Shown: positions 30,872 to 32,096 of the stretch, one piece after another
How the letters are laid out: each line of letters starts with the position of its first letter
How positions within the stretch are numbered: position 1 is the first letter of the stretch
IMG/VR virus record: IMGVR_UViG_2925908680_000001
Source: a virus
Taxonomy: Duplodnaviria; Heunggongvirae; Uroviricota; Caudoviricetes
Strand: one strand, 5' to 3'
Length of the DNA stretch: 64,000 nucleotides
Translations under genes and position numbers: made by a program
The notes under the pieces: generated by a model
Told to the model about the DNA's origin: nothing
The model's input: the letters and a program-made list of their open reading frames with translations, nothing else
Databases searched by the model: none

Positions 30872-31018
30872 TCTAAAATCACAATCCGAATGTATTGATT
30901 GTGAAGATAACTTAACATAGAATTTTCCTTGCTGGTGGGCGGTACCCACGTTTCGCTTGCTGGGCTTGATAGTCACTTATTGGTTATTGTTCTCCCACCA
31001 GCATTTAACAAATTAAAG

Positions 31019-31027
31019 TGTTAGAAA
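31019..31027 (+). promoter_or_regulatory. operator-like TGTTAGAAA
   Basis: Dispersed motif family. Confidence 0.5.
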
Positions 31028-31610
31028 TGTATAGTAATGCAAGAGCACGCTTTGGCACCGTGCAGGCCAAAGTTCAGCAGGTTTAGTGCGGAAAGTGGTT
31101 TCAGAGAGAGCACTTTGCGGAGTAAACGACAATACATGTTGAGCCACGGAAGGTCTTTTTAAGGTGTTCATTGATGATGGTCCGGCAGAGAGTAACGGTA
31201 CATGCTGCATCTAATCATCAATGCACATCTTCAACATTAAGGAGGCATAGGGATTTTTGTGGCGGTTACCTTTTGCCCTGAGTCTCCTTAATGTTGCGGT
31301 AATGCACCTATGCGGATGTGGCCTTGCATTGTGTCTTGAAAGAATGGGGTAAGGCCGGGGATATCCCCAGGGGGAGGCACCCCCGCTGCAACGAACAGCC
31401 ACAGACGGCAGTCGAGTGATGGAAACGTGTAAAGACTTTAAACCTCGTTACGGCTGGCGTGGCAAACGCGACAACCGAGACAGAGCGGTGACGGGCGGAG
31501 AGAGTGCCGCATCAAGAAAGAAGCCGACTTGTGATCCCTTTCAGCGGGCATTTGAAAGTGAATCCAGCTCAGGCAGTCGGCTTCTTTCTTGTGTGAGATG
31601 TAGCGTATTT

Positions 31611-31634
31611 GCCCATCTTCGGGTGGGCTTTTTT
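31611..31634 (+). terminator. rho-independent terminator gccca-tcttcgg-tgggc + TTTTTT inside non-coding block
   Basis: Stem plus U-tract; implies a + strand transcript ending here without an ORF. Confidence 0.75.
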
Positions 31635-32096
31635 AGGGTTTTCGTCATGGTTAGCGACTTTGCGGCGGTTTAGAAACTGACCATTAAAGTAAATGCAAAC
31701 GATGATCTGATGATGGTAGCGGCCTAAGAAGCCAGACGCCACGGGGTATGAGTCGTCCCCCGTCAAAAAAATCGACCGCAGAGTGTCCCCGTCTGTGTAT
31801 TAGGGAACGGGGAGGCATAACAGGCAAGGGCGCTGGTGTGATTAACCAGATGAATGAGAAGGGTCAGGTCTTTCTGGTCAGCGCCCTTACCTGTTGCGTC
31901 CTTCCCGCGTAACAGCCATTGCTTAATGGCATCCTGGGAGAATTTCTTGTAACGGGTATATCCCGTCATGTTGAAGGCGCTAATCACGCTGGAAGCCAGG
32001 GTTATGCATCCCCTGTTACCGAATTGCAGCCAGGGCGCGGTGCGCCGAAAAGCATACGGAGGTGGAAGCCCTCGCCGGAGACGTACCCGGCACAGT

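Follow-up and report, generated by a model that had tools for sequence, protein, structure and literature searches.

The 64,000-nucleotide (nt) stretch of viral DNA analyzed here (IMG/VR record IMGVR_UViG_2925908680_000001), referred to below as the window, is by its sequence a D6-like phage-plasmid of the P1 family. Between a pmgS-like gene and a tRNA cluster it contains an interval (30872–32096) that is probably the non-coding leader of a C1-type repressor-controlled tRNA-tciAB-ban operon; on the same reading, transcripts that pass the terminator inside the interval would carry an RNA element of about 180 nt (31637–31813), a phage-borne, tRNA-less derivative of transfer-messenger RNA (tmRNA) that would dock on the tmRNA of the host. 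Bacteria rely mainly on tmRNA and its partner SmpB to rescue ribosomes, and this system is an antibiotic target. The element appears to be an undescribed, widely distributed phage RNA in which an anti-tmRNA arm is joined to a surrogate tmRNA message. Positions are those of the window, and its features lie on the + strand unless stated otherwise.

Extent and Distribution of the Element

A sensitive search with 31600–32100 located the element in 251 phage records from unrelated groups; the matches cover about 31637–31727 and in some records extend to 31821, and the core (31637–31813) is 70–88% conserved across phage records. Carriers include Vi01-like Ackermannviridae, T1-like Drexlerviridae, N4-like Gamaleyavirus, Lederbergvirus/HK620, P1-like phages, and a Vibrio/Aeromonas-type siphovirus, and a degenerate-pattern search finds the element in at least 120 viral contigs. 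In Escherichia coli, 784 of 5426 complete genomes (about one in seven) have a match, at 150 chromosomal and 687 plasmid places. Only Enterobacterales carry the element among species-representative genomes, pattern matches in metagenome-assembled genomes of Terriglobia being chance matches. Conservation runs from GTTTTCG (31638) through a hairpin with loop GUGUGAUUAAUAA, giving a unit of about 180–190 nt beyond which the flanks are unrelated or modular. E. coli plasmids of 105–114 kb (H115–H122), larger than those of P1/D6 type, match only the linker and tag described below (query 45–108; 83–86% identity), which suggests that they carry a more divergent version.

Among the matches listed, those in phages almost always have no annotation beneath them, and those in E. 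coli have nothing annotated apart from one hypothetical protein; no RNA feature is given at this place in the P1, D6, and HK620 records or in one chromosome annotated by the Prokaryotic Genome Annotation Pipeline (PGAP). The element accounts for stretches of conserved "empty" DNA: the gap of 450 nt in the ban leader of P1 and some of the 1 kb that separates Q from S in lambdoid phages.

In HK620 and in a chromosome like that of Shiga toxin-producing E. coli (STEC), the element lies between Q/pR′/qut and the gene for holin S, that is, in a Q-dependent late leader. It adjoins tRNAs in the N4-like phage Bp4 and is found among small early genes in the T1-like phage CS01. The T1-like phages supply a sigma-70 promoter (TTGACA, a spacing of 16/17, TAGATT) with a transcription start a few nt before the arm, so the arm is best taken as the 5′ end of an independent small RNA. 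tRNA-like genes with odd anticodons (Ala-CGC, Cys-ACA) and low Rfam scores flank the element in N4-like and Vi01-like phages (1310–1381 and 1673–1751 in locus L004, from phage Bp4; 1281–1372 in L005); these may be degenerate tRNAs or tRNA mimics.

Tag Frame and Pseudoknots

A single-stranded linker (GAAACUGACCAUUAAAGUAAAU, 31673–31694) follows the arm and ends in the tmRNA-type pre-resume context UAAAU, with an in-frame UAG upstream and no start codon; the Rfam tmRNA_permuted consensus matches here, and the linker is 22 nt long in all aligned copies but one, from a Serratia phage (23 nt). The linker leads directly into a start-less frame of ten codons and a stop (31695–31727; GCA AAC GAT GAT CTG ATG ATG GTA GCG GCC TAA) that reads ANDDLMMVAA. 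All 126 collected copies have such a frame, with its stop and with an in-frame UAG upstream, and their peptides fit AN[DE][DEN]xx[LM][AMIV][AV]A; the tag of E. coli itself is ANDENYALAA.

The tag occurs in 33 distinct nucleotide versions that specify 17 peptides, one of which (ANDDVVLMAA) is written by eight different nucleotide sequences. Internal stops are absent from the tag frame in all 33 versions, as against 32 and 26 versions with stops in the other two frames, and a crude ratio of nonsynonymous to synonymous variation (pN/pS) is 0.35 in the tag frame versus 3.98 and 1.04 in the others; entropy at the three codon positions is 0.62, 0.40, and 0.93. Because this coding signature (pN/pS, synonymous variants, lack of internal stops) is confined to the tag frame, the peptide itself appears to be under selection. 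A +1 frame inside the element, opening AUG-CAA-ACG, was rejected: its peptides vary in length and its pN/pS is about 4.

The stop codon is placed in the loop of a helix (31719–31740, coordinates taken from sequence) resembling helix 5 (H5) of tmRNA, which covaries between CUGG/CCAG and CUGA/UCAG (alignment A1). Two pseudoknots follow. In pseudoknot a (31741–31777) the stem ACGGGG/CCCCGU encloses a loop, GUCG, that pairs with CGAC downstream, and both stems covary among 47 distinct cores; in pseudoknot b (31777–31813) CGCAG pairs, again with covariation, with CUGUG in the loop of the hairpin UCCCCGU/ACGGGGA, this loop being UGUGUAUUAG here and GUGUGAUUAAUAA in most relatives. For the H5-like helix and the two pseudoknots together, 90.7% of cells are paired across 47 distinct sequences, versus 37–46% in slid controls; changes on both sides are seen in 16 of 22 pairs, and none of 500 shuffles reaches the observed values. 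A hairpin in the 5′ domain and an analogue of pseudoknot 1 (PK1) of tmRNA were also considered and were discarded, neither showing covariation.

An Arm Complementary to Host tmRNA

The 5′ arm (GGUUUUCGUCAUGGUUAGCGACUUUGCGGCGGUUUA, 31637–31672) is predicted to form 30 bp (−36.5 kcal/mol) with nt 68–105 of E. coli tmRNA, a segment that begins in PK1 (loop 3 and the 3′ strand) and takes in the A-rich linker and the resume codon as well as the first five codons of the tag. Successive parts of this target are matched by blocks of the arm: CUUUUUA is complementary to PK1 loop 3, UUGCGG to the PK1 3′ strand (CCGCAA), GCGACU to AGUCGC across the resume codon, and GUUUUCGUC to the tag codons GAC GAA AAC. 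The reverse complement of the arm aligns to nt 67–105 of ssrA in all variants with listed coordinates, and the variants listed score 20–36; the arm of the lambdoid variant L013 scores 36 as antisense and 13 as sense, while 1000 dinucleotide shuffles give 15.9±2.3 and never exceed 28. Folding of the 5′ domain together with E. coli ssrA (MG1655) gives −46 to −53 kcal/mol, as against −32 to −39 kcal/mol for shuffles. No conserved internal structure was found within the arm, although the domain is highly conserved. As in a trans-acting antisense RNA, an accessible segment thus has extended, significant complementarity to a defined host RNA.

The complementarity is directed at the host rather than at the phage message. 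Calculated duplexes of the arms reach −27 to −38.5 kcal/mol with host tmRNA versus −11 to −25 kcal/mol with the phage's own tag, a preference for the host of about 12–23 kcal/mol. CGAAAAC, to which the arm is directed, is missing from every phage tag because the codons concerned are GAU GAU, GAA GAA, or GAU GAG, as would be needed to avoid self-pairing. A kissing contact of the conserved pseudoknot b loop with tmRNA was tried as a further point of interaction and proved no better than shuffles.

Absence of a tRNA-Like Domain

A scan of the window and 28 other loci with ARAGORN detects no tmRNA. The core of the element, which ends after pseudoknot b, has no T-arm, acceptor stem, or CCA end, and no tRNA or tRNA-like match turns up anywhere in the complete genome (48 kb) of CS01, a T1-like carrier. 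Since a tRNA-like domain is lacking both in the element and in the whole CS01 genome, the element is not a tmRNA, and a complete or permuted tmRNA was rejected on the combined outcome of ARAGORN, Rfam, and T-arm/acceptor scans of the window and of the whole T1-like genome. The T-arm motifs of the window all fall in tRNAs or in a separate cassette; cassettes of this kind are separate modules, because they stand upstream of the element in some phages and downstream in others. A 3′ tRNA mimic like that of turnip yellow mosaic virus was likewise set aside, the apparent CCA after pseudoknot b belonging to the next module, as was sense-strand homology of the whole element to ssrA, which is not significant.

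The only Rfam matches to the element are to tmRNA families, all below threshold and made through UAAAU and the tag stretch; they reach at most 23.8 bits in the window and 33.4 bits in Bp4, where RF04321 has a gathering score of 47, and RF00023, RF01849, and RF01850 score lower. The element therefore has the mRNA-like domain of a tmRNA and a stop codon in an H5-like helix followed by pseudoknots, and has neither the tRNA-like domain nor a score that reaches the Rfam threshold.

Proposed Mode of Action

In D6-type phages transcription would probably start at operator-overlapped promoters (30862–30879 and 31018–31035) and pass through a 600-nt leader to the strong terminator at 31611–31634, with read-through transcripts carrying the element. 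Its single-stranded arm would anneal to host tmRNA at nt 68–105, reaching from PK1 loop 3 as far as codon 5 and leaving PK1 stem 1 in place to stack, possibly, on the new duplex. Such pairing would mask the resume codon and the tag template of the host, and the duplex of about 30 bp could be a substrate for RNase III. The linker would leave the duplex beside PK1 and present its own GCA resume codon at about the native distance. After rescue by host Ala-tmRNA/SmpB, ribosomes could resume on this frame and add the phage tag (A-ANDDLMMVAA here). A start-less tag that is selected as a peptide, the lack of a tRNA-like domain, an arm specific for the message region of tmRNA, and a linker of constant length all fit this docking model. 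For decoding of the tag on stalled ribosomes with the help of SmpB, the selection at peptide level counts as indirect evidence.

Expression would be lytic in every context, by C1-derepressed read-through in P1 and D6, by Q antitermination in the late leader of lambdoid phages, and from a strong constitutive promoter in the virulent T1-like phages. The RNA would then be made and pair with tmRNA in vivo, inhibiting or re-programming trans-translation to the gain of the phage. A complete template swap is a more tentative proposal, which we think possible but do not expect on balance: all rescued polypeptides would receive a phage tag (A-ANDDLMMVAA or A-ANEEMYLAVA) instead of AANDENYALAA, from a host tRNA-like domain and a phage message joined by base-pairing only. 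Its carriers range from the classic phage P1 and from HK620-type and STEC prophages to virulent T1-like, Vi01-like, and N4-like phages; if the element pairs with tmRNA, many unrelated phages control trans-translation in lytic growth. If the template swap is true, they would be able to re-programme the fate of rescued proteins during that growth, and the element would offer a natural tool for re-tagging rescued proteins.

Several points weigh against the docking model. Expression of the element and its interaction with tmRNA are inferred from sequence; in the window the element stands directly after a strong terminator and has no promoter of its own, so it could be made only by read-through. 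Bulges break up the duplex between arm and tmRNA, whose formation requires PK1 stem 2 to open, and in P1-type copies the arm can also pair, more weakly, with its own tag (−22 to −25 kcal/mol). There is little difference between the arms of Salmonella, Klebsiella, and Vibrio/Aeromonas-type phages, and covariation between arm and host tmRNA is uninformative because the target is identical in all hosts sampled. A segment downstream (GGCGCUAAUCACGCUGGAAGCC, 31976–97) can pair in cis with 31637–31656 of the arm at 18 of 20 positions; this partner is conserved in P1 and D6 relatives, shows G-U/G-C swaps in L041, and is absent in L028, and the modeled pairing may be a cis mask of the arm in the long transcript or a processing helix. 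Outside the tag, likeness to the sense strand of ssrA falls short of significance, and the third positions of tag codons 1 and 2 never vary, so constraints at the RNA level also act on these codons. We know of no precedent for template loading held by base-pairing alone and of no tmRNA phenotype reported in decades of work on P1.

Part of this evidence would suit an RNA that only antagonizes tmRNA, masking it, triggering its cleavage by RNase III, or titrating proteins that bind it (SmpB or S1, for example), with the tag-like part never decoded and kept as mimicry or scaffold. This is the minimum version of the docking model: complementarity of the arm is the strongest single signal, and the invariance of codons 1 and 2 even at third positions fits a constraint on RNA rather than on peptide. 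There are parallels in phage anti-small RNAs encoded downstream of pR′ (PMC4104026) and in the partial tmRNA without a coding sequence (CDS) of mycobacteriophage DS6A, which is reported to inhibit host tmRNA (PMC11915505). An unread frame, however, makes it hard to explain the degron-like C-termini and the conserved pre-resume context, and it does not predict a coding signature confined to the tag frame, with a constant ten codons and stop and many synonymous variants; we consider pure inhibition rather unlikely. The element and the hairpins around it could instead belong to an ordinary operon leader and serve only the maturation of the tRNA cluster, as sites of RNase III, E, or P that govern processing or stability, with the likeness to tmRNA a relic of recombination with ssrA. 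The frequent proximity of tRNA genes and the long flanking stems, which look like RNase III substrates, are in keeping with this, but many carriers have no tRNA within kilobases or in the whole genome, T1-like phages provide the element with a consensus promoter of its own, and neither peptide-level selection on the tag nor a specific antisense arm is expected of a relic. This explanation is very improbable, and an element docking on host tmRNA remains our preferred account.

Operon Setting and Operators

Escherichia phage D6, a P1-like plasmid prophage, is 97.5% identical to window 30800–32173. At 31608 homology to P1 begins, and from there to 32173 identity with P1, P7, SJ46, and their relatives is about 89%. 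In D6 the interval has a pmgS-like gene upstream (window 29637–30860) and a tRNA cluster followed by tciA and tciB downstream; ARAGORN predicts five + strand tRNAs in the window, the first starting at 32097. The P1 record (GenBank NC_005856) lists, in order, Op72ab overlapping Pban, a "dicF-like region" (68791–68892), about 450 unannotated nt, trnA, trnT, tciABC, trnI, and ban. Because this homologous P1 stretch is the leader of the ban operon, the interval is taken to be the D6-type version of a known operon leader, consisting of two D6-type C1 operator-like sites, a lineage-specific structured leader of about 600 nt up to the terminator, and 460 nt common to P1, after which the tRNAs begin.

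The two operator-like sites are exact copies of GTGTTAGAAAT, each with a −10-like hexamer 1 nt downstream. Site 1 (30862–30879; hexamer TAAAAT) comes directly after the stop codon of the pmgS-like gene at 30860, and site 2 (31018–31035; hexamer TATAGT), the positional analogue of P1 Op72ab/Pban, is likely the promoter/operator for the leader transcript. Exact copies of GTGTTAGAAAT occur at 30862, 31018, and 40869 (minus strand), in addition to three copies with one mismatch, where 1.2 are expected; the extended motif TRTGTTAGAAAWNTA has 20 matches within three mismatches, compared with 5.8 expected. The best copies of TRTGTTAGAAAWNTA occupy the places of C1 operators in P1: ahead of the leader (as in P1 Op72/Pban), between the cre homologue and the next gene, between pro and repL, ahead of pmgS (as in P1 Op86), near lpa, and in the icd-ant region. 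By analogy, repressor control of the interval is plausible because the motif is enriched, is placed like the P1 C1 operators, and in each local copy lies 1 nt from a −10-like hexamer. Copies of TRTGTTAGAAAWNTA elsewhere in the window are at 17466, 18667, 28569, 29612, 35023, 39456, 40866, 53611, 57185, and 57841; they are probably the operator set of a D6-type C1 repressor, and these positions parallel P1 operators Op53, Op86, Olpa, Op99, Op2, and Op51.

Structure Upstream of the Terminator

An earlier note, made from the sequence of the window, had described the interval as an ORF-free (ORF, open reading frame), hairpin-dense region ending in an intrinsic terminator and had proposed repressor-controlled transcription of a non-coding RNA. 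The observation was real but mis-framed. Every hairpin and palindrome in that description can be located: a 10-bp stem between the operator sites (TGCTGGTGGG/CCCACCAGCA, 30930–30939/30994–31003), kept in relatives at 82–93% identity; GGGGATATCCCC (31357–31368); GGGGGAGGCACCCCC (31370–31384); and a long hairpin (GAAGCCGAC...GTCGGCTTC, 31520–31528/31576–31584), kept in CP104667 and L105. The impression of strong structure also stands, since folding is better than chance (minimum free energy z-scores against dinucleotide shuffles of −4.9 for 31036–31640 and −3.1 for 31637–32096). The terminator (GCCCATC-TTCG-GGGTGGGC and then T6, 31611–31634; a 7-bp stem, a UUCG loop, and U6) is misplaced in that account, however: it sits in mid-interval, and the 460 nt that follow it (31637–32096) contain the element that is most conserved and most structured, which the note missed.

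The suggestion of a repressor-controlled non-coding RNA was partly right. Control by a repressor is plausible by analogy and the region is essentially non-coding RNA, but it appears to form an operon leader rather than a single non-coding RNA stopping at the terminator, and the functional RNA that comparison supports by far the most strongly is encoded downstream of it, in a form common to phages without such operators. Two of the checks that the note had proposed were run. A comparison of relatives strongly supports the element after the terminator, while the upstream leader shows only one compensatory change among the four sequences compared; in an Rfam scan at permissive thresholds only tRNAs pass on the interval, with sub-threshold tmRNA-family matches through the tag region. 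Rfam matches to microRNA, MicA, and STnc240 families in the interval are merely hairpins or the terminator.

The structured D6-lineage leader (31036–31610), which matches nothing in Rfam, is restricted to phage D6 and some 108 D6-like plasmids. It contains hairpins at 31169–78/31214–23 and 31232–44/31284–96, the palindromes GGGGATATCCCC and GGGGGAGGCACCCCC, and a near-invariant block at about 31290–31520. The second of these hairpins has a 13-bp stem (CAACATTAAGGAG/CTCCTTAATGTTG) with a compensatory A>G/T>C change in CP104667, the most distant relative (82% identity). The window shares with the P1 dicF-like region just the terminator, which is common to the 3′ end of that region; DicF (RF00039) was rejected as an identity, giving no match in 30800–32100 even at E≤10. 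In L105 and CP104667 a P1 dicF-like body is inserted between the long hairpin and the terminator, so the window represents a variant without it.

ORFs of 30–85 amino acids (aa) are numerous across the interval. The interval is ORF-free in substance, because outside the invariant block all ORFs of at least 30 aa, including one of 85 aa that spans the terminator, are interrupted in CP104667, and protein-coding readings were rejected on this ground; the exception, at 31257–31352, stays open. This candidate small ORF (MWRLPFALSLLNVAVMHLCGCGLALCLERMG; TTG start, 31 aa, hydrophobic) has an AAGGAGG site at 31239–45 that is buried in the 13-bp stem, a layout that resembles a type I toxin.

Two explanations place the function of the interval before the terminator. 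One sees the product as a repressor-controlled non-coding RNA that starts at the operator/promoter (about 31035), stops at the terminator (31634), and corresponds in D6 to the dicF-like small RNA (sRNA) of P1, with the downstream sequence a mere spacer of the tRNA operon. The operator-like sites with their −10 hexamers, the strong structure (z = −4.9) with a compensatory change in one stem, and the fact that the P1 dicF-like region stops at the same terminator favor it, and the long hairpin (31520–31584), a U-rich single strand, and the terminator make up what looks like an sRNA-like 3′ module. This part of the interval, on the other hand, is confined to D6-like plasmids and has neither an Rfam nor a DicF match, four sequences are too few for covariation, and the supposed spacer is far more widely conserved and better supported in structure. 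We rate this account a little short of even; it is compatible with an operon leader that also carries the tmRNA-directed element. The other explanation is that the leader encodes a small hydrophobic protein of 31 aa (31257–31352), maybe a membrane peptide or toxin, whose ribosome-binding site is sequestered in the 13-bp stem. AAGGAGG lies 7–11 nt upstream of the TTG start, and the ORF is open in all D6-like relatives checked, including the 82%-identical CP104667, where it persists through indels as 33 aa with a different hydrophobic N-terminus. Retention of the frame over about ten codons is weak evidence, though: the C-terminal two thirds lie in the near-invariant block, so that no ratio of nonsynonymous to synonymous substitution (dN/dS) is measurable, the stem alone would also explain the AAGGAGG/CTCCTT pairing, and the ORF is never annotated and has no homologues that we could find outside D6-like plasmids. 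A protein product is accordingly unlikely, and the operon leader with its read-through element remains the better description of the interval.

Modules and tRNAs Downstream of the Element

A perfect 17-bp hairpin (AACAGGCAAGGGCGCUG/CAGCGCCCUUACCUGUU, 31819–31895) follows the element. Such "long-stem cassettes" also stand beside the element in other phages; this one may act as an RNase III-type processing stem. From 31896 to 32096 extends a spacer common to P1 (about 89% identical) with small hairpins at 31915–30, 31952–66, and 32034–46. Modular cassettes are seen in lambdoid, T1-like, and P1-like phages (loci L006–L126; in the window at 31819–31895, 32350–32435, and, as GGTGAATGCGCAGGCTGATGCGCG, near 32666). 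They consist of long imperfect stems (…CAACAGGTAAGAGCATT / AGTGCTCTTTCCGTTGTG…) around variable inserts of 50–110 nt, some with T-arm-like hairpins (UAGAGUUCGACUCUCUA at 32368–84), and the motif at their tail is similar to what follows dicF. With tRNAs and the anti-tmRNA element the cassettes form a string that looks like an array of separately processed small RNAs.

The tRNA at 32097–32173 is on the + strand with anticodon UCU (Arg) according to both ARAGORN and Rfam; in the D6 record (NC_050154, 7778–7850) the same place is labelled "tRNA-Asn" on the opposite strand, as are the other D6 tRNAs as to strand. The window has an additional tRNA-Tyr (32179–32265) that is unlisted in that record. 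Between tRNA-Ser and the tciA-like gene, 32996–33116 gives a sub-threshold Rfam match to the gammaproteobacterial sRNA STnc100 (39.4 bits; gathering score 47; E = 6e-6), and phage Bp4 has a weaker one.

Comparison with Known Systems

The nearest relative of the interval as a whole is the leader of the P1 ban operon, with which it shares genome position, the terminator, the segment 31608–32173 (about 89% identical), repressor operators upstream, and tRNAs, tciAB, and ban downstream. In the window the operators are of D6 type and a 575-nt D6-specific leader replaces the P1 dicF-like body; in the P1 record nothing is annotated from the dicF-like region to trnA, the place of the element. P1 also has an antisense RNA from an operon leader. 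C4 (immI) is processed from the leader of a repressor-controlled P1 operon and acts in cis and trans on its own icd-ant mRNA; it resembles the element in origin and differs in having its own operon mRNA, not a host RNA, as target and in being without an mRNA-like module.

We found no description of the element in the full-text literature searched, which did not include the P1 and D6 genome papers, and no natural RNA antagonist of tmRNA in that literature, in Rfam 15, or in the GenBank/PGAP annotations of P1, D6, HK620, and E. coli prophages. Rfam anti-sRNA families likewise give no match to the element. Among described anti-sRNAs, AsxR and AgvB of lambdoid prophages are Hfq-dependent RNAs of 51–60 nt that sponge FnrS and GcvB (PMC4104026). 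Like the element they come from the late-leader or "moron" region beyond pR′ and pair, through a targeting 5′ end, with an RNA of the host core genome (PMC4104026); the element is longer (about 180 nt), is predicted to target tmRNA, and has a template-like body. The CDS-less tmRNA of DS6A is similar in being a phage-borne partial tmRNA that is reported to interfere with host tmRNA (as cited in PMC11915505). DS6A keeps the tRNA-like domain and is without the tag, so the element is its mirror image with an antisense arm added.

Compared with tmRNA itself (SsrA; RF00023, and the two-piece forms RF01849/RF01850/RF04321), the element has the same UAAAU pre-resume context, the GCA resume codon, no start codon, and a ten-codon tag of the ANDENYALAA type that ends in a hydrophobic residue followed by Ala-Ala or Val-Ala. 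In both, too, a helix (H5 in tmRNA) holds the stop codon in its loop and H-type pseudoknots come next. It differs in being without the acceptor stem, T-arm, CCA end, H2 helix, and PK1, in its length of about 180 nt versus 363, in the two pseudoknots after the tag versus three, and in a 5′ end that is antisense to tmRNA.

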